A stretch of 32,413 nt of DNA from a virus (Duplodnaviria; Caudoviricetes): positions 1 to 32,413 of the IMG/VR virus record IMGVR_UViG_3300012665_000298; one strand, given 5' to 3'. A program made the translations under genes and the position numbers. This document shows, piece after piece, positions 11,054 through 24,458 of this stretch. The notes beneath the pieces were generated by a model that had not been told where the DNA came from, searched no databases, and saw nothing but the letters and a program-made list of their open reading frames with translations. Each line of letters opens with the position of its first letter. The stretch's first letter is position 1.

Positions 11054-11884
11054 ATGTCAGAATATACATTAGCATATAGCGAAAAAGTAAAGGGGTGGAC
11101 ATCGTTCTACTCCTTTATCCCCGATTGGATGATTGGGATGAACAACTACTTCTATACGTTCAAGGGAGGTAATCTATACCGACACAACGTGAATCAAACT
11201 AGGAATACGTTCTATCAAAGTTGGTGGACTCAAGAAGGTCATCCTGAAAAAGCATTTGAACCATCTACATTACAGACGGTATTTAACGATGTTCCACTTC
11301 AGAACAAGTTGTTCAAGACATTAAACATAGAGGGTGATGACGCTTGGGCAGCAACTATGCAGACTGACATTCAGACTACAGGATACATCGAGTACCCATG
11401 GTTTGAGAAGAAGGAAGGTGCATGGTTTGCATTTGTTCGTAATTCCGGAACAGTTCCGGCACTTACAGATGAGTACGCGTTGCGATCACTGAATGGTGTA
11501 GGACGAAGCGCGTCAATCACTGGCCCGGCTGCTGCATTGCAGATTAACTTCTCCATTGCACCGTTGGTTGCTATTGGAAGTATTGCAAGTATTGGTGACT
11601 ACCTTTACTACGCATTGCCACCATATACCACTCCTGTACTATGCGGTGAGATTACAGGAATTACACAGGACTATCCGGCAGGTGACAACTACTTTGTGGT
11701 AGACACTACGTCAGGTGGAGCTATTCCACCTATTCAGACACCGTACTTCTTATACATCAAAAGTTCAGTTGCTGAGTCACATGGTGTACTTGGTCACTAC
11801 TGCGTGGTTAATTTAGAGAATAGCAATACGTCAAAGGTTGAACTTTTTGCTATCGAGTCAGAGGTAATGAAGAGTTATCCTTAA
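11054..11884 (+). CDS. Probable C-terminal part of the muzzle/stabilisation protein, encoded as a separate gene
   Basis: Begins TLAYSEKVKGWTSFYSFIP and contains KLFKTLNIEG and FEKKEGAWFA, motifs I recall from the C-terminal region of one-piece stabilisation proteins. Confidence 0.6.
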   Translation: MSEYTLAYSEKVKGWTSFYSFIPDWMIGMNNYFYTFKGGNLYRHNVNQTRNTFYQSWWTQEGHPEKAFEPSTLQTVFNDVPLQNKLFKTLNIEGDDAWAATMQTDIQTTGYIEYPWFEKKEGAWFAFVRNSGTVPALTDEYALRSLNGVGRSASITGPAAALQINFSIAPLVAIGSIASIGDYLYYALPPYTTPVLCGEITGITQDYPAGDNYFVVDTTSGGAIPPIQTPYFLYIKSSVAESHGVLGHYCVVNLENSNTSKVELFAIESEVMKSYP

Positions 11885-11917: not shown

Positions 11918-12826
11918 ATGATTGGAGCAGTATTAGCAGGACTTGAACTAGCATCTTCAGCGGCAGGGATAGTTGGATCATTTACTCAAGCAAATAAACA
12001 AAAGAAATTTTACGAAGAAGCTAAAGCTGATGCAGCCAAATCAATGGTTGCAGCAAAAAAAGCCATTAACGTAAATTATTATAATAATCTTGCTATTCCA
12101 ACTCAAGCATATGAGATGGAGAGAGATTTGATAAATGCAGCTTCTGCTCAAGCAACTGAAGCAGGTAGAGAAGGTGACCAAAGAGGCGTTGCTGCTACAG
12201 CAGGACGCGTTCAGGCTGCTACAGCAGACGCAGCAAGAGGTGTTAGAGCTGATATGTCTAAGGATTTATATAACCTAGATAAACTTACTCAAGAAGAGAA
12301 CAGTCGAATTGCAACTAAGTTAGCAAGCCTTGACTTAGCTGAGGCAGAGGGAGCACAGTTAGCAGCGGCAGATGCTCAAAAATCAAGAACTGCTGCAATT
12401 ACTCAAGGTTTTGCAGGAGTGGCAGACTTCGCAGGTAAGGCCGCAGGTATGCTTCCTTTGTATGAAAAAACAAAAGGAGCTAAGATGTTTGCTAACTTGC
12501 AAAAAGATTATCTTCAGGCTGGTCAATCAGGTAAATTATCTTCAGATTATTTGGATGAATCAGGAAATCCAATAGATTTTCAACAAGCAATTGTTAAGAT
12601 GGGAGGATTTGGTGCAAACGTAGGAAGCTTAGATGCTAATAAATTTCAGAATTATATTACAAGTCTTCCTTATGAGCAAATGCAATCTGCATTTCAAGAC
12701 AAATCATTTATGCCAACTGAAACTAGTTCAAATGAATATTATTTAAAAGGAATGGAAGTAAATCCTATGGAAGATTTTGATCTTTCTTCTGTAATCAGTG
12801 GTTATAAAAATTTGCAAAAAAAATAA
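11918..12826 (+). CDS. Putative ejection/internal virion protein 1 (small, Ala/Gly-rich)
   Basis: Hydrophobic Gly/Ala N-terminus (MIGAVLAGLELASSAAGIVG), Ala/Gln-rich coiled coil and a second Gly/Ala segment. First of three genes of rising size after the tail genes, as for podovirus ejectosome genes. Confidence 0.65.
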   Translation: MIGAVLAGLELASSAAGIVGSFTQANKQKKFYEEAKADAAKSMVAAKKAINVNYYNNLAIPTQAYEMERDLINAASAQATEAGREGDQRGVAATAGRVQAATADAARGVRADMSKDLYNLDKLTQEENSRIATKLASLDLAEAEGAQLAAADAQKSRTAAITQGFAGVADFAGKAAGMLPLYEKTKGAKMFANLQKDYLQAGQSGKLSSDYLDESGNPIDFQQAIVKMGGFGANVGSLDANKFQNYITSLPYEQMQSAFQDKSFMPTETSSNEYYLKGMEVNPMEDFDLSSVISGYKNLQKK

Positions 12827-12829
12827 AAC

Positions 12830-14380
12830 ATGGCAACATATTATAAGTATGCTGAGCAAAGTGCTGATAGTCAAATAAATTGGGCAGAGATAGGTAAGAA
12901 CCTATCCGATACGCTTCAAGAAGCTAATAAGATACGAGAAGACAAAAAGGAAGCACTTAATCAATCTACTCGTGAGTTTTCAAAGACATTAGCTAATTCA
13001 CCTCAAGGAGAAGATGCTTTAGCAAATCAACGGACATTAGACTTTGCAAGTGATATGACTGAATTAATGTTAATTCAAGAAAACCTTTTTAAGTCAGGTC
13101 AGACAAAATTTAAAGACTACGCTATTGTAAGACAAAACTCAATAGATAGTACAGAGCAATTATTCAATCTATCTAAAGAGTATCAAGAAGAGTATCAAAA
13201 GAAGATGGAAAGGATGAAGGCAGGCACTTCATCTAAAAAAGAACAGCTTGAAATGGAGCAAGTTGAGGGGTATTCAAACCTATCAACTATGAAGCCATAT
13301 ATAAATCCAACAAACGGTAATGTTAGCATGGCTAAGGTTACAAAAAAAGAAATTGATGGAAAGATTGTTGAGGTTATGGATGAGGATCCAAATAATTACA
13401 TAGGTGTAAACGATGCTAGAAATCGAATAAAATCTTATTGGGATAAATTTGATGTGACAAAAGCTCTAGTTGATGTTGAGGCTGTTTTAGGATCAGATAT
13501 AGGGTCATTTAGAAAAGCAGGAGGTCTATTTAAAGCAGGTGAGATAGTTACAACAGAGGATGTTACAAATAAAAAAGATTTTGAAGATGCTAAAAACTTG
13601 TACGTAAAAGCAGAAGATAACTTTATAACGGGACTTCTTTCTAATGGATTTAATGTTGAATCAGTTTTATTAGATCACAAAGTATTTGCTGAAGATGGAA
13701 AAGAGTACAATTATACATTTAATAAAGACGATCAATCTCCTAATAAAATATTAATGAAGGTCGTTAATGGCACATCTGTAATGGATGAAGAAGGTACATA
13801 CTATAAAGATCAGTATAAGGCATCAACAGATTACATGAAAAAACAGTTGCGTGTTATGCTTGATAAAAAAGTAAATATCGACACTTACAGTGAGCCTGCT
13901 AACTTTGCTCCTAACTACGGGACTGGTAGTGGAGATGAGAAACAGAAAAAAGCTGAAGCTGCAAATATGTTAGGTTATTTCTACTATGGTACACCTGCTC
14001 AGATGAAGGCAGCAACAAACTACTTCAAAGGAATTGATCCATCGATTAAAGGTATTGTTCGTGCTAATGATAGAATTATCATCGAAAGACAGACTAAAGA
14101 TGCCAAGGGGAATGTTACAGGTACAAATTACGAAAGTGTTTATATGCAACAAGGAGGTAAAAAATTATCTCAAAAAGAATTTATTCAGTCTGCATCACCT
14201 GAATTAGCAGGAATAAACGATATCTTTACAGGACTTGAACAAGGAAGCTATGTTGAAGGTAAACCTTTAAGTCAATATGAACAATCTATTATACATAGAG
14301 ATGTTAGTGCTGAGGAGAATATGCAAAAAGGCGGTAAGGGAACAGGTAATATAAGTACTTCGCAGTACAATCCAAAATAA
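12830..14380 (+). CDS. Putative ejection/internal virion protein 2
   Basis: 516 aa with a helical N-terminal half. Position between the small and the giant cargo genes. Confidence 0.55.
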   Translation: MATYYKYAEQSADSQINWAEIGKNLSDTLQEANKIREDKKEALNQSTREFSKTLANSPQGEDALANQRTLDFASDMTELMLIQENLFKSGQTKFKDYAIVRQNSIDSTEQLFNLSKEYQEEYQKKMERMKAGTSSKKEQLEMEQVEGYSNLSTMKPYINPTNGNVSMAKVTKKEIDGKIVEVMDEDPNNYIGVNDARNRIKSYWDKFDVTKALVDVEAVLGSDIGSFRKAGGLFKAGEIVTTEDVTNKKDFEDAKNLYVKAEDNFITGLLSNGFNVESVLLDHKVFAEDGKEYNYTFNKDDQSPNKILMKVVNGTSVMDEEGTYYKDQYKASTDYMKKQLRVMLDKKVNIDTYSEPANFAPNYGTGSGDEKQKKAEAANMLGYFYYGTPAQMKAATNYFKGIDPSIKGIVRANDRIIIERQTKDAKGNVTGTNYESVYMQQGGKKLSQKEFIQSASPELAGINDIFTGLEQGSYVEGKPLSQYEQSIIHRDVSAEENMQKGGKGTGNISTSQYNPK

Positions 14381-14396
14381 TATTTAAATTTACAAG

Positions 14397-17300
14397 ATGA
14401 ACGAACAAGCACTAAACGATGCATATAAACTTTTCTCAAGTAAAGGTTATAGTGGTGATATAAATCAGTTTAAATCTTTAATGGCATCTAATGGAAATGC
14501 CTTAAACGATGCACATAAACTCTTCTCAAGCAAGGGATACAGCGGAGATGTCAATCAGTTTAAATCTTTAATAGGTGTTGGTGGGCAATCACAAGTAAAA
14601 AAAAAAGCTCCTTCAGAAGGATTGGAATCAAAAAAAGCTACGAAGGGAACTTCGGTATTATCTTTGGAAGATTTTTCATCGGTATCTCCGTCAGAAAATT
14701 ACAATAAGAAATCACTTTCTCAGACATCTAAAACAGGACAGGTATTTAAAGGTTATCCCGGTAAAGGTGATAAGGAATACCTATTTGAGAATGGTAGATG
14801 GTATGAGGATAACTCAAAAAAACAATACTTAGAGGGTCAGATAAAAGCCTTAGAGGAGAGAAAATCGGGATTAAAAAGCATTGAGTCTGAACTTGAAAGA
14901 AAGTTAAGCGCAAAACCTATTGATAAAGCTATTGCTGAAAAGAAAAAACAATTATCTCAGTCTAACTCTAAGAACTTAATATCTGATCCATTAAGAGTAA
15001 CTGCCTTAAATAAACACTTCGGTAAGGAGGCAAGTACATCTCCATCATATAAAACATTTGTTGGTTATCCTGGTAAGGAGAAAAACCAATACATGATATC
15101 AGGTGATGGGAATTGGATGAGAAAGGAACCGGGCCAAAAAGAATGGCACACACTTACAGATCCTACAGCTGTTACCGCATTAAATCGTCAGTTCAAACAA
15201 AACGTCAAGGTTCTTCCTAAAGACGTAGCCAAAAAGCTTACTACTGAGAATAAGATTAAAACTGATTTCAATAGAAAGATTGATACTGTAATTACATCTA
15301 AGCTTACTGATGAGTCAGAAGAAAGTGTAGTTGATACATTGACTAAACAATTTAAAGGTTCAGGGTTTACATTTTCACAAGAAAAAATTGGGTCTGATCG
15401 AGTTTTAGTTACCGCTCCAAATGGACGGGACAAGAAGTTGATAGTGACAGACAACTGGACTTGGAAAGAAGATAAAGAAGCGGCATCAGACTTAAAGGCG
15501 TTTATGCGTCAACACGGGGATGCGGCATATAGCAAAGCTGAACAAGATATTGCTGAAAGTGAAGGTTACTTCTTGACAAAGGATATAAACGCTAAACAAG
15601 CTGCATTAAACGCTGGCTCAGGTCAGATGCAACCTGAACAACGTGATCTTAAGATAAATACTGATGGTAGTATTGAATATGCTGACACAGAACAATTAAA
15701 GCAAGAAAAAAAGAAAGCTGTTTCATTAGACATAGAGGAAAGACTTAAAGCTCCTGAGGTACGTAGAGAGTACATGAATCAGAAAGCTGCTCAATTTGAC
15801 GAAGTAAGAGATCGATATAAGACTAAAGACCTGTCAGATGATGATTTAAAATATGCCTATGCGCAAATTAAATCTGACGACAAAGAGATTAAAAGAACTA
15901 ACGACTTTGTTACTGACATCAACAAGTACACTAAAGACTACAACAAGAGTAAAGAGTTTCATGAAGGATACGTTGAAGACATTCAAAGCAAACTTCGTTC
16001 CGGAGAGATTACAATGGAACAGTATGAAGCAGAGTACAAACCAAAGATTGAGGAAGAAGATGCTCGATTAAAGTCACAGAGTGCTGACATATCAAAAGAC
16101 TTAAGTAACCTTCCAAAGGTACAGTTAGCAATGGACAAGTCTGTTGCTCAGAACTTTATTATTGCTGAATCAAAGGGTAGTATTGCTGGTGGTATGACAT
16201 ATAACTTTGCTAAAGGTTTAACTGACATTACTCGTTTCTTTGGTGTATCTAAGGAGGAGCAAGACAAGATGATCCGTGAAGCAACGGGTATATTAACCAC
16301 TGAAGAGTTCATGAACTCAGGTGATAGAAGTGATATATCTAAGGCAATGTTCTCTATTACTGAGTCATTAGGAGCAGGTATATACAAAGCGGTTCCAGGT
16401 ATAGGTCAGGCATTAACAGCTGCTAGTTTATATAGCATGGGTTACTACGAGTTGAAAGATGACTTAGACAGTGCTGTAGGAAAAGATGGTAAGCCATTGG
16501 ATATTAGTGAGCGTGACAAGATTGTCATGTCAGGTCTTTATGGTGCAGCATCTGCAGCTTTAGAGAGTATTGGACTAGATGCAGTGCTTGGTAAAAGTAA
16601 AATTGTTAATGGTGTAACAAATAGAATCATTAAGAATGCACTTAAGTCAATACCAAGGAATGCGTCAAAAGAGTTTATAGAGGCAGCTATTAATAGCAGT
16701 GCTAAGGCATACGCTGCAAACTTTGCAACAAAGACATTAATAACACAGGCTACAGAAGGAGTTACTGAGGCAGCTCAGAACTTAGCAATGGCAAGCACTA
16801 AAGAGGTCTATGACCAATTGAATGAGACTGATTACTTTAATAATAAGAGTGGTTGGGAGATTGCTAAGGATGCCATGTACGATGGGTACCTTGGAGCATT
16901 GGGTGCAGGTGTTACACACGTAGCTACGCAAGCTCCTCAAGCAATTAAATTAGGTGTAAACTCGGTATACAAAAAACCTGAGATTGAGATGCTAATCCAA
17001 TCTGCTAAGACAGTAGGTATGGATCAAGCTTTGATTACAAACCTAAAGGCTAGTATATTAAAAGGAAAGGTATCTAAGGAAGAGGCTAAGGATATATTGA
17101 ACTCATTCCAAACAGTTCAATCAAAGGTTGAGTCAATGACACCTAACCTATCTGTAGACCAACAGTCTGTGACTCTTGACTTAATGTTAGAGAAGGACAG
17201 AATTTCAAAAGAAATAGAAGGGAAGGACCCGAATCTCGTTGTAGTTCAAAAAGCAAGAATTGGCGAGATAGATAAACAAATTCAAAAAATTGGAGAAGAT

Positions 17301-20300
17301 GCCGTTCAAAAGCAAGCAACAAGTGAAGTTCCTGTTCAGTCAGAAACCGGAGTTGGCGAAAAAGTGGAGGGAGGAGTACCCCAACCAACCACTGAGCAAG
17401 TTACCGAAGAAGTTGTCGGAGAAGAAGTTGAAAGTGAGCAAGCTCAAACAGAGGTCACTAAACAAGAAGCGTTAAATAAAGAACGAAGTAAATGGGAACA
17501 ATTATCTCAATCAAATAAAAAAGGTGTAGCACAATCTGCAGCACAAGCACTAGAAGCATTTGATGAAAATCCTGTTGAGTTTGTTAAAAGAGAATTATCA
17601 GGTTTTGAAGAAGGATCTAAAGAATATAATGAGTACAAAAATCTTTATGATTTATTAACAGCTGAAGCACCTGTCGTAGAAACTGCAACAACTGAGGCTG
17701 TGTCTTCAAAGACACAGGAGACAGCTCCAAGTACTGAGTCTGAGTTAGACTTTGAGGTTACACCTGAGGTAAACCAAGAGGCTGATGCACTTGAGAAGTT
17801 ATTGGCTGATGAGGGTATTACGGTAGAAGCACCGGTGGTAGAACAACCTGTGGCTGAAGAGGCAGTAGTTGAACAGCCTATGGCTGAAGAAGTTGCTGTT
17901 GAAGAAGAAGCTGTAGTTGAAGAGATCCCATCTCAACCTGTTTCTGAAATGCCTTTAACTAATGTAGACTTGAAATCTTTAAATCAAGAAAAGATAAATA
18001 GTATCTATGAAGCACTTCCTAAGGAGACAAAAGAAAAATATTTCCCAGCAGGAGTAGATGGTATAAAGTCAAGTAGATTCGTATCTAATCTAAAATCTGC
18101 ATTAGGTGAAGTAAAAGCAATTAAGGCTATAAGACAAGAGGCCGCACCTGTATCTGAACCATCCGGGAAAACCGGACAGTTGCCGATTACAGAAGAAGCT
18201 CCTGTAGCTGAAGCTAAACCTACTGCAAAACCAAAAACTGCTAAGAAGCTTACGGTTAAGGAGATTGTTCAAAAGTATAGTGATCACATCGACTCATTGA
18301 TTAAGGCTGAGAAAGAAAAATCGGATAGAAAAATTGTTCAACTTGACAACCAAAAAAACTCAGCAAGAGAAGAAAGACGTAGAGAACTTAATCAAGAGAT
18401 TGAGAATTTAAAGATTGATTTCATAGCTAAAAAAATTAGCTTAGAGAAAAAGAAAAACGATAAGCAAGCTGCTAAAGATTTCAATGAGAATCCTGCACGC
18501 TTTAGAATGTCTGAGGGTACTCAGGAAGAAGCTGATACAAGAAATGATGAGGATGCTATCGTTGCTAAGATGAACGAGGCAAGTGCTGAGGAGAAGGGAT
18601 TAACGAGGGGAGAAGTTCCTGAGTCGGTTGAGGTTAATCCAATTGAAGAGTCATCGTCATTGTCTAAGGGATTAGACAAGGTGTTGAAGTTCTTAGGTTT
18701 AAAAGACAAGAACTCATTACTTAAAAAGATTGAAGACTTTAACGGTATACCAATGATACTTGGTATGTCAGATATGTTAGCTGCCGGAACGATTAAAGAT
18801 TCCATGGGTGGCGACATGGTCGTAGATGGTGGTTTACTATACAACACTCTAGGTAAGAATGTAGGTCTAGCTTGGGCAGGTGTAACTGAAGATGGAGCTA
18901 ACAACCAAGTTAAACAAGCGCGTGAGCTTTACGAAGCAAACAAAGAGTTGTTTGATAGATTGTGGGCCGAAGGAAAGATTCCTCAAGGACACGTACCTAT
19001 GGCAATTATGCGTATGGGTAACACGGCTGTGAACTCAAACGAGGCTGTGTTTAGATACTTACTTCCATTAGTAAAAAGTTTACCATTAAAGAATAGAACA
19101 GCTGCGCTTAGAACCTATATGCAGACCTTACAGTCTAAGGCTGAGGGTAACGCTGCATCTTATTGGTTTACTGAGCTAGATGAGCAGATGGAGATGGGTA
19201 ACGTGGCTTCTAAAGAAGACGTTATATCTTACCTTGATAAATTAATTGAGGAGGAAAATAAAAAAGAAGTTCCTTTAAAGGCTAAAGTAGATAAGATTAA
19301 TTCTTTCAGAAATGCCATTAAGAAAAATAAAGATGGTCAAGAGAGAACATTTGATGATATAAGAGAAGATCTAAACGAAAGATTAGAGAAGATTGTTCCG
19401 GTCATGTTAGCAAGTTACATTAAAAGTAACAAGATTAAGACATTGGATGGATTCCTTGAGGCTGTAGTTAATGAATCTAAGAAAAGAGCTCAAGGTGATA
19501 AAAACATATTCTCTTTACCTGTTAGATCATTTATATTCAATAGCTTAGTATCACCTGAATCAACTAAAGGTGCAAATAGTTTAGCTGTAATTAAGACCTT
19601 ATTAGATGGTGTTAAGAAAGCTGATCCAACTATATTTACTGCTAGACATATATACGATGCCATCGGTGAGAAGTCAATGCTTAAGGCAAACCAAGGTGAT
19701 GTAGTTGGTATCATGGGTATCAAGGTTGTTGATGAGAATGGAAATCCTGCAGGTGGAGCTAAAAAAGCTGATCACAATAACTACGGTTACGGTCCGGAAG
19801 GAAGGGTAATCGCATTGATTAAAAATCCTAAACAGGGTATCGATGTATTCCCTGAGTTTAGAGCTAAGTTAGCGCGTGTATTTAAACCAAGTAAGACAGG
19901 TGTATATCCAAAGATAGACAACGCTATCCAACAAACAGGTGGAGCGTTCTTTATGGATGCAGCCTTTAGAGGTACTGCTCCGGCAGTAGATGCTATGTCT
20001 GACCTTAAGGTATTGATTGGTAAGTTAAGATTTGCATTCCCTGAGGTAAGCGTTGCTACGACTCAAGAAGAGTTTGACAACTTCTTAGAGCAAGAAGGAA
20101 TTAGAGCACGTGAGAAGGATGGTAAGGTTATCTATGGTGTTACCAAGGATGGTCGTATCTTCTTAAACCCAACTGAACAAACATTACGCACACCTATTCA
20201 CGAGTTCGGTCACATTTGGATTGACTACTTGCGTTCTACTGCGTCAGGCAAGAAGGGTGATATGCTACTTCAAAAAGGATTTGAGTTAGTAGATGGAACA

Positions 20301-23300
20301 CCTGAGTACGAGAGAGCGTTAAAAGAATACGGTAACAGAGAGTTAGCGTTAGAAGAGGCGTTAGTAGAGTTAATGGCTGTCAAAGGTGACACCATTGCTA
20401 GTGCCGCTAAGAAGTCTCAGTTCTTGGAGTGGATGAACGCTATGTTCAAGTACATTAAAGAGAACTTGACTCGTTCTAAAGACTTTGCTCAGACAAAAAT
20501 CAAAGACTTGACTCTTGACGAGTTTATTAATATTGGATTGGCTGACTTATTCTCAGGACAGAGAGTAAGTGGTAAGTTTGATGCGAGGACCGCTGGGGAG
20601 GCTAGTAGGGCACGTTTCTCAAAGGCGGACAACATATCTAAGATAGTAGATATTGCGGCCAAGAATGGTGTGTCTAACGAAGCCATCAAACTATTGTTGG
20701 CGAGAAGAGGATTCTCTATTAGTGATATCAATGCTGCATTTGTTAAGAAAGCAGCTCCTATTAAAAAAGGAAAGGTTTCTAAGGTTACAGTTAACGAGAA
20801 GACTGCGTTAAAGGATCAGATTAGATTAGAAGCTCGTGCAGCTCGTGAGGCTAAGAAGGATGTAAACGATAAGAGAAAAGACTTAGCTAAGACTATCTCT
20901 GACATGGAGACTACCGGTAAGATTACCACTAAGCAAGCACAGGCATTAATGGCACGTATTAGCAAGCTTAACATGGACAATCCGGCAAAGGTTGATGCAT
21001 TTGTTGAGTACGCGGGTAGAGTATTTGAGAACGCTGAGTTTGCACAGGATGTGGCTAGAGCACGTTCACTACAGTCTAAGGTAAGAAATAACGCTAAGTC
21101 TAAGCTTGGTATCGCTAACGACTTGATCTCTGAGATACTAAAAATGGCATCTATTAATCCATCGTTAATTCCATCTAAGGTATTTGATACCTACATGGAA
21201 ACTATGGAGATGCTTGGTCAAAGAACAACTGTCCTAAAACTTGAGGATAGAGGGGAGCTTACGCAAAAGGTTGCTGACATTTTAGACGCAGTTAACGAGG
21301 AGTTATCTGTAGCCAGTGAAATGGCTGAGCGTTTTGAAGCTTACGACAAGAAAGAGGTTAATAGTGAAGGAAAGATAGACTTTGCTAAGACCTTAGACAA
21401 GATGATAGCTGATGATACGATTACCAAGGAAGATGCTGATATCATGCGTAAGTACAAGTCTGATATAATTGACAAGGAGTCAACTAAGATGACTGAAGAA
21501 GAGCTTGCTAAAGAGAAAAAGACTTTGCTTGAAGTTATTAAAAAAGATGTTATAACTGATGAGGCTATTAGAAACCTACCATCAGAACTAGAACGTAAGT
21601 TAGCTAATTCTATTAAATCATTACTTAAGACTGATGCTGTTAACAGATTGGATAACAGTACGTTAAAGAACTTATTAAAGTTAGTTGACAATATAAATAA
21701 TGGTTTCGTACCTCACTACGCTCAGAAAATGAAGGAGAGATTAACTTCTATTGATAATTCTCCAGTATTAGAGACATCAATCAAGAAAGGAAATCCATTA
21801 AAGGTTAGCTCATTTACGAGCAAGGTTAAGGCCTTATTCACGAATAGAAACTATGTATTGGAAATGATACGTAGCGTGGCACTAGCGAATGTTGATCAAG
21901 TGTTTGGTGACTTTAAAACAAACAACATATTCAAAACAATGTTTGAAGGATCAGCTAAAGGTATCAGTGCATTTAATTCTGAGTTAGCAAGGGTTCAAGA
22001 TAAGCTAGAAGATGCAAGACTCAAGGTAGCCAAGTCATTAGGTCAAGATCCAAACAAGGTAACTATGTCTGCGTTCAAAACAATGACGTACTTGTTACAA
22101 CTTGAGAAAGAATCTAATCCTGACAGCAAGCAAGTAAACAACGCTGTTGACTTTATCAATGCTACTATTGATCAAATTGAGAAGGGAGAATCTATTTATA
22201 CAGAGATGGATGCTGAGTTCTTACAAGATATACTAGATAAGTATACTAAAGAAGGTCAGATAGATACCAATAAGCTTTACAACTCATTTAATTCAGCTGA
22301 GAAAGCTGCTATTAAAACGATACAAGAAGTAAACGACTCTATGACTGAAAAGGCTGTGTACACAGCAGGTATAATTAGAGGTGATAAGATTAATCCAATT
22401 GCTAACTATGTGCCACACGTTGTACTTAAAAAAGTTAAACCTGGAGAGGATATTTCAGGGGCAAGCGATGTAGCTAACTTTAGTGAATCAAGAGAGCCAT
22501 CTACGAAGGCTAAGAACTTAGTTGAACGTACAGGTACTGTTACAGCTATTAGCTTTAACCCATATCAATCTACGCAGAATGCGGCTAAGAATGTATTGTT
22601 AGACTTCCATATGACTGAGCCAATTAGGATAGCAAGAATGACCATAAACGAGACTCGTAAGAGATTGGAAGAAGGTAAGGTAACACCTGAACAAAGAATG
22701 TTCTTGAATGCTATTAGTAACGCATTCGAAGAGGCTACACAAAATGTATTAGCAAATAGCTTCCAACAAAATGAGTTATTAGATAAAGCAGTAGCTTATA
22801 TAGCTAAGGCTGGATATCAAGCTGTGTTAGGTACAAGTGTGACGCGTACTGCATCAGAGTTACTGTCTAACATGAGTGCGGTTGTATTAATGAACCCTGC
22901 TGCATTTGCTGAAGGAGTTAAAAGCTTTAGCAACTTCTCAAATCCTGAGGAAGGACTTGACATCATGTTAAATGTTGGTAGTGCTCAGACTGAGCGTGTT
23001 ATGGGTGGGAATACTCAAGGAGGTATGTTGGTAGATCCTTCTATCATGAAGCGTGCAGTTGGTATGAAAGATACCAAAGCAAAAAATAAGTTAGCTAGTA
23101 CTATGCAGATGATCTATAACAGATCAATCAAGAAAGGTTTAAATGCTACTGAAGGTTTATCAGATATATTGATGTCTTCTCCGGATATGATTGTAACTAG
23201 ACCTACATGGTTTGGATCATTTGCAACTGAATTTGAAAAGGCATCAGGTAAGAAAGCTGACTTTGATAAGATCAAGGCTAACGATGAGGCGTACATGAAT

Positions 23301-24458
23301 GAGAATGCAGATGCTATTAAGGCTGCTAAAGAGAAAGCTGATAAGGCTGTATTCAACTTAAGTGCAACGAATAATGCGTACATGGGATTATTGAAAAACA
23401 ATATATCTCCAGACTCAAAAGGGATTACTAAGGCTGTTAAGGTATTTGATAACTACTTGACTCGATTTACTACATACGAGTACTTAAATTCTCGTACTGC
23501 AATCTATGCGTTAGCAGGTAATGGTATGATTAGCAAGGGAGAGGCTATAAGATTATTAGCAGGTGTTACTACACGTATGATCACATACTCGTTATTAACT
23601 AAATCACTTTCAGCTGTATTGTTAGGATTAATGGGTGGAGATGATGAGGATGACGACAAGACTTTCATGCAAAAGCTTGGTCAAGCTGCGGCATCTGCCG
23701 GGACGACATTGATGCTCGGTAGAAACTTCGGTAATATCTCAAGAAATATCATGGGATATGGTACAGAGAAAATGAATGAGAAGTATCTTACAGCTTTAAG
23801 AGAAGGTGACTACGATGCATACCAAGATGCAATTCAGTACACAGTTGTTCCTCAAGAAAAGAAAGGGGAAATGGGTAAAGGAGTTGACGTAATGGATATG
23901 TACGTTAATATGTTAGGACCTGTAAGTCCATTCGTAAAGAGTCTTGTTTATGGTATTGAGAAGTTAACCGAGAAGGACAGAGTTGCTCCGAAGGCAAGTG
24001 ACAGCGATGCTGTTAAGGCTAAGAGGAAAGAAGCTGTGACTAGACAGCAAAGAGAAAGAAATGAAAGAGTTCCTTTAGAGATTATAGGTACGTTAGGATA
24101 TGTACCATTCTACAAGGATATCAGAAAAGCAGTGAACGAATCAATCTACTCTGATCTTAAGAAATCCCTTAAAGAGCAAGAAGCTAATAAAGAAAAGAAG
24201 GCAGAGATGTTAATGGGTTACGAGAGTAAGACTGACATGGAGGATAGCAATCCTAAGCTTTACGAAAGACTTTATGGTGAAGGTGGTAAGTACTATGCTC
24301 AAGAGGAGATTAGACTAGCTAATGAGAATCTTAAGGAAAGACTTAAGAAAATCGAAAAACAATTAGGTAGTGGTGAGATCGGTAGGACATATGCAAGATC
24401 ACTTCGTAAGGAAGCAATTCGAGATAAAGCGAATAGGATAAAACAAGCTAATAGATAA
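14397..24458 (+). CDS. Giant putative ejection/polyvalent protein with a zincin-like metallopeptidase domain
   Basis: 3353 aa. N-terminal repeats, Gly/Ala hydrophobic segments (~16150-16950 and ~23550-23720), Glu/Pro/Val-rich linker (~17290-18250), HEFGH at 20199-20213 with downstream EEALVE at ~20352, and a long helical C-terminus. Confidence 0.75.
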   Translation: MNEQALNDAYKLFSSKGYSGDINQFKSLMASNGNALNDAHKLFSSKGYSGDVNQFKSLIGVGGQSQVKKKAPSEGLESKKATKGTSVLSLEDFSSVSPSENYNKKSLSQTSKTGQVFKGYPGKGDKEYLFENGRWYEDNSKKQYLEGQIKALEERKSGLKSIESELERKLSAKPIDKAIAEKKKQLSQSNSKNLISDPLRVTALNKHFGKEASTSPSYKTFVGYPGKEKNQYMISGDGNWMRKEPGQKEWHTLTDPTAVTALNRQFKQNVKVLPKDVAKKLTTENKIKTDFNRKIDTVITSKLTDESEESVVDTLTKQFKGSGFTFSQEKIGSDRVLVTAPNGRDKKLIVTDNWTWKEDKEAASDLKAFMRQHGDAAYSKAEQDIAESEGYFLTKDINAKQAALNAGSGQMQPEQRDLKINTDGSIEYADTEQLKQEKKKAVSLDIEERLKAPEVRREYMNQKAAQFDEVRDRYKTKDLSDDDLKYAYAQIKSDDKEIKRTNDFVTDINKYTKDYNKSKEFHEGYVEDIQSKLRSGEITMEQYEAEYKPKIEEEDARLKSQSADISKDLSNLPKVQLAMDKSVAQNFIIAESKGSIAGGMTYNFAKGLTDITRFFGVSKEEQDKMIREATGILTTEEFMNSGDRSDISKAMFSITESLGAGIYKAVPGIGQALTAASLYSMGYYELKDDLDSAVGKDGKPLDISERDKIVMSGLYGAASAALESIGLDAVLGKSKIVNGVTNRIIKNALKSIPRNASKEFIEAAINSSAKAYAANFATKTLITQATEGVTEAAQNLAMASTKEVYDQLNETDYFNNKSGWEIAKDAMYDGYLGALGAGVTHVATQAPQAIKLGVNSVYKKPEIEMLIQSAKTVGMDQALITNLKASILKGKVSKEEAKDILNSFQTVQSKVESMTPNLSVDQQSVTLDLMLEKDRISKEIEGKDPNLVVVQKARIGEIDKQIQKIGEDAVQKQATSEVPVQSETGVGEKVEGGVPQPTTEQVTEEVVGEEVESEQAQTEVTKQEALNKERSKWEQLSQSNKKGVAQSAAQALEAFDENPVEFVKRELSGFEEGSKEYNEYKNLYDLLTAEAPVVETATTEAVSSKTQETAPSTESELDFEVTPEVNQEADALEKLLADEGITVEAPVVEQPVAEEAVVEQPMAEEVAVEEEAVVEEIPSQPVSEMPLTNVDLKSLNQEKINSIYEALPKETKEKYFPAGVDGIKSSRFVSNLKSALGEVKAIKAIRQEAAPVSEPSGKTGQLPITEEAPVAEAKPTAKPKTAKKLTVKEIVQKYSDHIDSLIKAEKEKSDRKIVQLDNQKNSAREERRRELNQEIENLKIDFIAKKISLEKKKNDKQAAKDFNENPARFRMSEGTQEEADTRNDEDAIVAKMNEASAEEKGLTRGEVPESVEVNPIEESSSLSKGLDKVLKFLGLKDKNSLLKKIEDFNGIPMILGMSDMLAAGTIKDSMGGDMVVDGGLLYNTLGKNVGLAWAGVTEDGANNQVKQARELYEANKELFDRLWAEGKIPQGHVPMAIMRMGNTAVNSNEAVFRYLLPLVKSLPLKNRTAALRTYMQTLQSKAEGNAASYWFTELDEQMEMGNVASKEDVISYLDKLIEEENKKEVPLKAKVDKINSFRNAIKKNKDGQERTFDDIREDLNERLEKIVPVMLASYIKSNKIKTLDGFLEAVVNESKKRAQGDKNIFSLPVRSFIFNSLVSPESTKGANSLAVIKTLLDGVKKADPTIFTARHIYDAIGEKSMLKANQGDVVGIMGIKVVDENGNPAGGAKKADHNNYGYGPEGRVIALIKNPKQGIDVFPEFRAKLARVFKPSKTGVYPKIDNAIQQTGGAFFMDAAFRGTAPAVDAMSDLKVLIGKLRFAFPEVSVATTQEEFDNFLEQEGIRAREKDGKVIYGVTKDGRIFLNPTEQTLRTPIHEFGHIWIDYLRSTASGKKGDMLLQKGFELVDGTPEYERALKEYGNRELALEEALVELMAVKGDTIASAAKKSQFLEWMNAMFKYIKENLTRSKDFAQTKIKDLTLDEFINIGLADLFSGQRVSGKFDARTAGEASRARFSKADNISKIVDIAAKNGVSNEAIKLLLARRGFSISDINAAFVKKAAPIKKGKVSKVTVNEKTALKDQIRLEARAAREAKKDVNDKRKDLAKTISDMETTGKITTKQAQALMARISKLNMDNPAKVDAFVEYAGRVFENAEFAQDVARARSLQSKVRNNAKSKLGIANDLISEILKMASINPSLIPSKVFDTYMETMEMLGQRTTVLKLEDRGELTQKVADILDAVNEELSVASEMAERFEAYDKKEVNSEGKIDFAKTLDKMIADDTITKEDADIMRKYKSDIIDKESTKMTEEELAKEKKTLLEVIKKDVITDEAIRNLPSELERKLANSIKSLLKTDAVNRLDNSTLKNLLKLVDNINNGFVPHYAQKMKERLTSIDNSPVLETSIKKGNPLKVSSFTSKVKALFTNRNYVLEMIRSVALANVDQVFGDFKTNNIFKTMFEGSAKGISAFNSELARVQDKLEDARLKVAKSLGQDPNKVTMSAFKTMTYLLQLEKESNPDSKQVNNAVDFINATIDQIEKGESIYTEMDAEFLQDILDKYTKEGQIDTNKLYNSFNSAEKAAIKTIQEVNDSMTEKAVYTAGIIRGDKINPIANYVPHVVLKKVKPGEDISGASDVANFSESREPSTKAKNLVERTGTVTAISFNPYQSTQNAAKNVLLDFHMTEPIRIARMTINETRKRLEEGKVTPEQRMFLNAISNAFEEATQNVLANSFQQNELLDKAVAYIAKAGYQAVLGTSVTRTASELLSNMSAVVLMNPAAFAEGVKSFSNFSNPEEGLDIMLNVGSAQTERVMGGNTQGGMLVDPSIMKRAVGMKDTKAKNKLASTMQMIYNRSIKKGLNATEGLSDILMSSPDMIVTRPTWFGSFATEFEKASGKKADFDKIKANDEAYMNENADAIKAAKEKADKAVFNLSATNNAYMGLLKNNISPDSKGITKAVKVFDNYLTRFTTYEYLNSRTAIYALAGNGMISKGEAIRLLAGVTTRMITYSLLTKSLSAVLLGLMGGDDEDDDKTFMQKLGQAAASAGTTLMLGRNFGNISRNIMGYGTEKMNEKYLTALREGDYDAYQDAIQYTVVPQEKKGEMGKGVDVMDMYVNMLGPVSPFVKSLVYGIEKLTEKDRVAPKASDSDAVKAKRKEAVTRQQRERNERVPLEIIGTLGYVPFYKDIRKAVNESIYSDLKKSLKEQEANKEKKAEMLMGYESKTDMEDSNPKLYERLYGEGGKYYAQEEIRLANENLKERLKKIEKQLGSGEIGRTYARSLRKEAIRDKANRIKQANR
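14413..14572 (+). repeat. Tandem intragenic duplication, 90-nt period (ALNDA[YH]KLFSSKGYSGD[IV]NQFKSL x2)
   Basis: 14413-14482 and 14503-14572 are near-identical; most differences are synonymous. Confidence 0.9.
14597..14707 (+). other. Candidate programmed -1 frameshift/slippage cassette (A10 and A7 runs) with an overlapping -1 frame
   Basis: GTA AAA AAA AAA GCT (14595-14609) and TCA AAA AAA GCT (14628-14639). The -1 frame reads SSFRRIGIKKSYEGNFGIIFGRFFIGISVRKLQ* with stop at 14705-14707. Confidence 0.55.
17299..17475 (+). CDS. Nested (+1 frame) small basic protein, MPFKS... family
   Basis: 58 aa MPFKSKQQVKFLFSQKPELAKKWREEYPNQPLSKLPKK..., resembling a small phage protein family I recall as stand-alone genes. 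A-rich leader with A at -3. The host-frame codons here are atypical (GCC, ACC, GGC, CCC). Confidence 0.65.
   Translation: MPFKSKQQVKFLFSQKPELAKKWREEYPNQPLSKLPKKLSEKKLKVSKLKQRSLNKKR
17835..17894 (+). repeat. 30-nt tandem repeat encoding VVEQP[VM]AEE[AV] in the acidic linker
   Basis: GTGGTAGAACAACCTGTGGCTGAAGAGGCA followed by GTAGTTGAACAGCCTATGGCTGAAGAAGTT. Confidence 0.7.

Follow-up and report, generated by a model that had tools for sequence, protein, structure and literature searches.

A candidate overprinted hairpin tail near the start of a giant virion-type gene in flavobacterial podoviruses

The giant gene that closes the structural module of this phage very probably gives rise to a second, short protein. 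Past ten consecutive adenines (A10) near the gene start, the -1 frame encodes basic residues and then a conserved tail, and a one-base gain at the run joins 67 residues of frame 0 to 36 of the -1 frame, giving a 103-aa isoform beside the 3353-aa protein. Such a recoded isoform of about 103 aa, with a protein-coding hairpin tail, was the core of the original prediction, and it is supported by conservation of the run, selection on the -1 codons, a predicted hairpin and classical shift signals in relatives. By the pattern of its substitutions, the -1 frame after A10 is an overprinted protein code under selection. The product would be a so far unannotated protein under strong selection in aquatic Bacteroidota phages, a widespread group.

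A wider proposal is tentative, and as a whole we would sooner doubt than assert it: flavobacterial podoviruses, cultured families included, may encode a hidden fourth ejection protein, which is unannotated in the deposited genomes examined. It would be a small membrane-inserting hairpin protein whose code overprints the linker of the giant ejection protein, and its dose relative to that protein would be set by interchangeable recoding devices, namely A10 polymerase slippage in one group and, in the other, ribosomal shifting driven by pseudoknots at sites of three kinds.

The A10 run at the start of the giant gene

The window, i.e., the whole 32,413-nt stretch of DNA analyzed, covers part of a phage structural module and, beyond it on the opposite strand, replication genes; it is of flavobacterial phage type. 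Its capsid-type protein matches Flavobacterium phage Elemo, Cellulophaga phages, Maribacter phage Panino and one environmental genome (85 records), and its 1559-aa protein has Gundel as a further match. Both Calle and Gundel belong to the podoviruses infecting Flavobacteriaceae (PMC8776804). The final three structural genes rise in size (302, 516 and 3353 aa; Table 1), as do the three consecutive genes gp14, gp15 and gp16 that end the structural module of podovirus T7 (PMC8954989). By this position the 302-aa and 516-aa genes would correspond to a first and a middle ejection protein, and the size and position of the 3353-aa protein make it likely to be an internal or ejection protein. Unlike the T7 proteins, those of the window have no sequence match to solved structures, and the available part of the T7 source describes no frameshift isoform (PMC8954989). 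The giant protein and a profile of the 516-aa protein gave 0 matches in the PDB at E<=0.1, and thus no homology to characterised ejection proteins. The giant protein matches phrog_32588 at residues 2471-3295 and, weakly, a structural protein of Elemo (E about 7e-6). In phi18:3, genes syntenic with the ejection-type genes of the window are annotated as virion proteins from MS/MS, including gp123, the counterpart of the giant gene; the isoform has no annotation there.

Table 1. Features of the giant-gene region, in positions of the window
Feature	Position	Strand	Basis or remark
302-aa virion structural protein gene, phrog_13764	11918..12826	+	Gly/Ala-rich hydrophobic N-terminus
516-aa gene upstream of giant gene, phrog_35506	12830..14380	+	anchor for collecting homologues
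Giant gene, 3353-aa virion-type protein, frame 0	14397..24458	+	ORF; last gene of structural module
N-terminal module, common to both products, swappable	14397..14597	+	two ~29-aa helical repeats and short linker
A10 run, putative slip site, GTA AAA AAA AAA GCT	14597..14606	+	run conserved in homologues
-1 frame, 36 codons then TAA (14705-14707)	14597..14707	+	basic stretch, then conserved tail
Small hairpin TCCTT-CAG-AAGGA	14609..14621	+	weak; 2 nt after A10 run
Second A7 run, in phase	14630..14636	+	followed by 5-bp GGAA hairpin (14641-14654); local
Conserved aromatic/Gly beta-hairpin of -1 frame (predicted)	14645..14692	+	130-tail alignment and AlphaFold; invariant Gly codons 14654, 14666, 14681

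The A10 run, the A7 run and their shared -1 frame all lie where the original prediction had placed them. Both runs are in phase as A_AAA_AAA and both are followed by GCT. The A10 run is the sole run of at least nine A or T in the 32.4-kb window, and contigs that cross it, sought in four independent public DNA sequencing runs, contain no indel there. Two further elements to which the prediction had given weight turned out to be incidental. A second run of at least seven adenines was found in 2 of 77 loci, the window included, which does not support a tandem slippery arrangement, and the hairpin TCCTT-CAG-AAGGA is both unconserved and unremarkable in stability (-3.1 kcal/mol, z +0.18; whole region z 0.09).

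Homologous giant-gene starts were collected through the upstream 516-aa gene. This gene-first set comprised 183 loci, and removal of 41 duplicates, 43 that were too short and 2 without a downstream ORF left 97 distinct starts. As predicted, the run is kept: 94 of the 97 have at least nine adenines within 520 nt of the gene start, all A9-A10, whereas 605,947 nt of flanks contain 4 A9 and 0 A10, so the run is more than chance, even though the loci are related and the counts overstate independence. The 94 comprise 68 A10 in the phase of the window with an intact frame, 15 A9 in phase 0, each preceded by T, 7 A10 in phase 1, 1 A10 in phase 0 and 3 runs in contigs with a broken frame 0. Most runs end in one phase before G. 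Elsewhere in the giant genes, 0 of 20 KKK triplets are written entirely with AAA. The three exceptions are L015 and L085, which have no run, and L027, which has A8. The tail of L015 is degenerate and L085 has neither tail nor run, both possible losses; a further possible loss is L044:3190-3310, which lacks the A-run and has G_GGA_AAG and a stem, with no recognisable tail.

Cultured phages share the arrangement. A10 occurs at the same place in Elemo, phi38:1, Calle_1 and Gundel_1, and MW202828 has A11; in all five a short basic, aromatic, Gly-containing -1 frame follows the run, a likeness judged by eye. A profile of the tail scored Panino at E 0.24 and the window at E 0.5, and missed the tails of Elemo, phi38:1, Gundel and MW202828. 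Five genomes (Panino, phi18:3, phi46:3, phi13:2 and phi19:3) are deposited with A9, which breaks the giant gene into what is annotated as a small gene and a truncated remainder, a split that the recoding site explains. Since the Panino assembly was built with Canu from MinION reads (PMC11590407), its homopolymer was likely under-called. We consider A9 in all five genomes likely to be a homopolymer error. The 2013 Cellulophaga phage paper is said to have used 454 sequencing for phi13:2, phi18:3, phi19:3 and phi46:3. If A9 were real in these genomes, the giant protein itself would need slippage.

Codon-level constraint on the -1 frame

A DNA motif of the tail region was learnt frame-blind from the gene-first loci, and it fell in a single phase in 93 of 93. 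At a cut-off of >=20 bits, 77 loci with 52 non-redundant cores were retained; 16 of the 93 tails scored below this and were excluded from the codon tests (several longer variants and a few without the motif). The peptide is conserved as Y-G-I-x-[FI]-G-R-W-F-[FI]-G, as the original prediction had anticipated, with selection acting at the protein level. Its three Gly columns are kept in 52, 51 and 52 of the 52 cores and use all four GGN codons, and frame 0 at these columns reads E, A, V, G or D. Nucleotide entropy over the three positions of the -1 codon is 0.90/0.75/1.34 (52 cores), so that variation peaks at the third position of the -1 codon, the base that frame 0 reads as its second. At the amino-acid level, mean identity reaches 0.53 in the -1 frame, against 0.35 in frame 0 and 0.31 in the +1 frame. 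Close pairs show the same pattern at the synonymous sites to which the prediction had pointed: of 358 differences, which are not independent, 211 are synonymous in -1 (2.85 times expectation) and 72 in frame 0. When codons were resampled with the frame-0 protein fixed, the three Gly were expected together 0.02 times in 52; they were observed 51 times.

The Gly-codon resampling and the wobble that follows the -1 frame reject both ways in which no protein would be made, namely a DNA or RNA element (promoter box or module-swap junction) and a genetic-code shadow of the Ser-rich linker, and we regard these as very improbable. The box TATCTTTG at 14659-14666 and the swapping of N-terminal modules at the run (in contigs of public sequencing runs; phi13:2 versus phi18:3) would fit a DNA element, and TCN codons, which yield hydrophobic residues in -1, would fit a shadow. 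However, TAnnTTTG, the Bacteroidetes promoter -7 box consensus, occurs in only 1 of 77 cores, that of the window itself, which excludes the promoter-like box as the source of the constraint. TATCTTTG has 5 matches in the window against 2.4 expected, and 12 of 100 shuffles scored as high. Moreover, relatives carry classical shift signals with covarying stems.

Recoding by two apparent mechanisms

Two scans with patterns lacking the A-run gave a motif-first set of at least 183 loci (about 340 estimated), at least 152 of them distinct. Among the matches listed, 148 of 152 distinct loci have the motif close to the start of a long ORF and in its -1 frame; of the other four, one is an A8 contig, two are chance matches and one belongs to the family but has an early stop. 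The tail frame has its own ATG in 1 of these 148 loci. Their sites, again among the matches listed, divide into A>=9 (84), G_GGA_AAN (36), A_AAG (16), G_GAU_UUU (7) and other (5). The long run is thus missing in 64 of the 148 listed, most of which have a classical shift site instead, with G_GGA_AAG the commonest site of the pseudoknot group among the matches listed. The G_GGA_AAN, A_AAG and G_GAU_UUU types are known -1 shift sites (PMC5009743).

In the non-A-run loci the site is followed, after a spacer of 5-7 nt, by a stem (32 of 33 non-redundant loci among the matches listed). Stem 1 scores 18.8 against its own 3' arm and 11.5 against the arms of other loci, with 24 of the 33 listed above the 95th percentile, and the arms differ widely in sequence between loci. 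Most of these loci also have a second stem with H-type pseudoknot geometry (mean score 27-35 versus 16-18 shuffled), a result of a simple scan in which the site of each locus was picked by rank and a few were misassigned. Some relatives (L196, L216, L266 and L292) combine A7 with a stem. Rfam has no family for the non-A-run stems and nothing at the window. The two groups are related: 19 of the 22 giant proteins listed for the non-A-run group fall in one BLAST component with those of the A-run group, and N-terminal module families are partly common to both. The upstream genes of the non-A-run group are too distant to match those of the A-run group. From these signals, -1 ribosomal frameshifting stimulated by a pseudoknot is the likely way in which the non-A-run relatives produce the same tail. 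Two probable routes to one tail would mean that it is the product which is under selection, much as for dnaX tau/gamma.

The A-run class has no comparable structure. In the window, a 3' stem-loop or pseudoknot about 5-9 nt downstream is absent (score 28 versus null 25, z 0.1), and in the A-run class as a whole a 3' stem scores 11.2 against its own arm and 11.1 against other arms, with 3 of 42 above the 95th percentile among the matches listed. A 5' hairpin before the run gave no signal either (mean z -0.31, 93 loci). The tail motif starts a median of 11 nt after the run in this class, which leaves no room for a 3' structure. Short shift sites have a structure beside them and long A-runs have none. 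Bacterial RNA polymerase slips efficiently on nine A or T, and in E. coli A_AAA_AAA is much less shift-prone than A_AAA_AAG (PMC5009743).

For the A-run group, the window included, the lack of downstream structure makes RNA-polymerase slippage likelier than ribosomal shifting, and slippage also fits best with a length held at 9-10 whatever the phase. The run has the features of a slippage site in that it lies inside coding sequence, is conserved in homologues and is avoided elsewhere. By analogy with other bacteria, we favor a transcriptional rather than a ribosomal step at A10, with some reserve. RNA polymerase would add an extra A at A10 in a fraction of transcripts; these, translated normally, would give the 103-residue protein, composed of the N-terminal module, a basic stretch and the predicted aromatic beta-hairpin, and unslipped transcripts would give the 3353-residue giant protein.

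The same isoform could instead arise by -1 ribosomal frameshifting or sliding on A_AAA_AAA_AAA with no structural stimulator, which we consider somewhat unlikely. The window does have an A_AAA_AAA heptamer in phase, in fact two overlapping ones within A10, relatives clearly carry ribosomal signals, some of them A7 plus a stem, and the phase shared by most runs before G is in keeping with such a site. However, the length of 9-10 is kept despite changes of phase (8 of 97 have A10 in other phases), the class has neither a 3' structure nor room for one, and the long-run loci do not use the stronger A_AAA_AAG. Ribosome sliding in E. coli, moreover, is robust at A11 and weak at A9 and A10 (PMC4363877). 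Polymerase slippage remains our preferred route for the A-run group.

Among known systems, dnaX is the closest. One gene gives a long and a short product, and different lineages reach the short one by different mechanisms, a -1 shift at A_AAA_AAG in E. coli and slippage on a 9-run in Thermus thermophilus (PMC5009743). The gamma product is essentially a truncation, whereas here the new frame encodes a conserved tail of 17-60 aa, the shift comes within the first 2-3% of the length of a giant virion gene, and a single phage group appears to use both mechanisms. E. coli copA and carboxysome csoS2 (CsoS2A/B; CsoS2 is a shell-interior protein) also yield a short N-terminal product beside the long one by a -1 shift, but the residues that the new frame adds, where stated, number a few at most (3 aa for Cso2A) and form no overprinted functional tail (PMC5009743). 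Phage structural genes with -1 shifts include the G/GT tail chaperone, T7 10A/10B and the Kuravirus capsid gene, the last at G_GGA_AAG (PMC5009743), and the nearest phage case is a putative extending shift in a putative endolysin/internal virion protein of Alteromonas virus H4/4 (PMC5658483). In all four the shift lies near the end of the first ORF and extends the product, while that of the window truncates a giant protein near its start.

Slippage and frameshift devices are already known; what appears new, and real, is that a single phage group uses two mechanisms to overprint a conserved tail where a giant virion gene begins, a use that we did not find in the literature searched. No description of this frameshift was found in the titles and abstract openings covered. 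In potyviruses, P3N-PIPO arises when the polymerase slips on an A-run, which gives access to a short frame nested in a long ORF; that system differs in belonging to a eukaryotic RNA virus with its own viral polymerase, and its sequence is unrelated. The phages described here form a natural series in which one product is apparently obtained via transcriptional slippage or pseudoknot-stimulated ribosomal shifting, and they yield dozens of new predicted natural bacterial frameshift structures.

The short product and its possible role

AlphaFold modeling on 130 aligned tails predicted a two-stranded hairpin, with strands at residues 17-23 and 26-32 and a pLDDT of 91 over residues 21-30. The model sets the outer Gly residues opposite each other, and both cross-strand Gly are replaced by Cys in one lineage (L047:14155-14240 and L383), a single event; in a scan for further Cys-variant tails, 1 of 10 matches was a family member. 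The same two loci, in independent assemblies, have an A11 run and a basic stretch containing RGRP, which we take to be an AT-hook-like motif. After the lysines the tail has a median net charge of +4, and it ends 4-15 residues past the last Gly. A doubled motif or a longer, three-segment tail with a CG[IF]YC stretch was seen in Panino (L252), L101, L003, L009, L143, L151 and L159.

The N-terminal module is helical, as judged from a four-helix model of a homologue (single-sequence fold, tail part unmodelled), and the modules form 24 clusters among 240 loci. Exchange of modules occurs exactly at the A-run: contigs in three sequencing runs join different upstream sequence at 14595, and phi13:2 (L257) has a Gundel-like module on a body like that of phi18:3 (L255).

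Searches with the tail against PHROGs and Pfam gave best E-values of 0.017 and 0.092, each to single members and not usable, and there was no usable match at the family or fold level among PDB sequences, in Foldseek PDB or with VIA-align. An Atlas search with an in-frame version of the isoform reached a best score of 0.79, to unnamed viral clusters. As a standalone gene the tail was not found: a protein profile search, in whose longer version the best 8000 candidates were scored, gave six hits, all N-terminal module plus tail on single contigs. Eleven database proteins carry the tail in frame or in the +1 frame; they may reflect errors in run length and are left out of the evidence.

From gene context and chemistry, we suggest that the isoform could be packaged with the giant protein via the shared N-terminal module, and that the cationic aromatic hairpin would engage a membrane during DNA ejection. 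We regard this reading as almost, if not quite, an even call. For an outer-membrane channel, the 302-aa gene is a better candidate than the isoform with the -1 tail.

Alternatively, though this is unlikely, the isoform would stay in the infected cell and out of the virion, held by its hairpin at the inner membrane or on an assembly intermediate, and would recruit or ration the giant protein through the N-terminal module in head assembly. Lambda gpG and gpGT offer an analogue, since they are active yet do not become part of the virion. In essentially all loci the tail remains joined to an N-terminal module, no signal peptide is present, and the amount of isoform is inherently tied to that of the giant protein, all of which would suit such a role. 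Nevertheless, the modules are diverse (24 clusters) and the tail is constant, which suggests that the tail has the fixed partner.

A role as lysis helper is quite improbable. Here the hairpin would disrupt the outer membrane where a spanin is absent, like disruptin (gp28) of phiKT (10.1101/515445), and its positive charge is in line with this, as is the fact that a table of PMC8776804 lists no spanin for Calle or Gundel. Disruptin, however, is a free cationic amphipathic helix of about 56 aa, whereas the tail is a predicted beta-hairpin fused to the N-terminal module of a virion-type protein; it was never its own gene in the protein searches run, and the window does not include the lysis genes of this phage. 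Packaging with the giant protein is the role that we favor, at the strength given above.

Some features of the window lie apart from the isoform. The giant protein contains an HExxH motif (HEFGH, zincin-like) at residues 1935-1940, near position 20200, for which the Atlas lead was to clusters of LPD23/LPD1 polyvalent proteins (0.94, with the family on 18% of members). Just past the linker, its frame 0 has two GYPGK..K.Y...G.W repeats (14750-14810 and 15060-15150), which are also present in L001. Upstream, a 276-aa protein (11054-11884) matches the C-terminal domain of the Crassvirus muzzle (PF25729, E 7.5e-15); the N-terminal part of this family is either in the separate 1559-aa gene or absent, and a 436-aa Cys-rich gene lies between.
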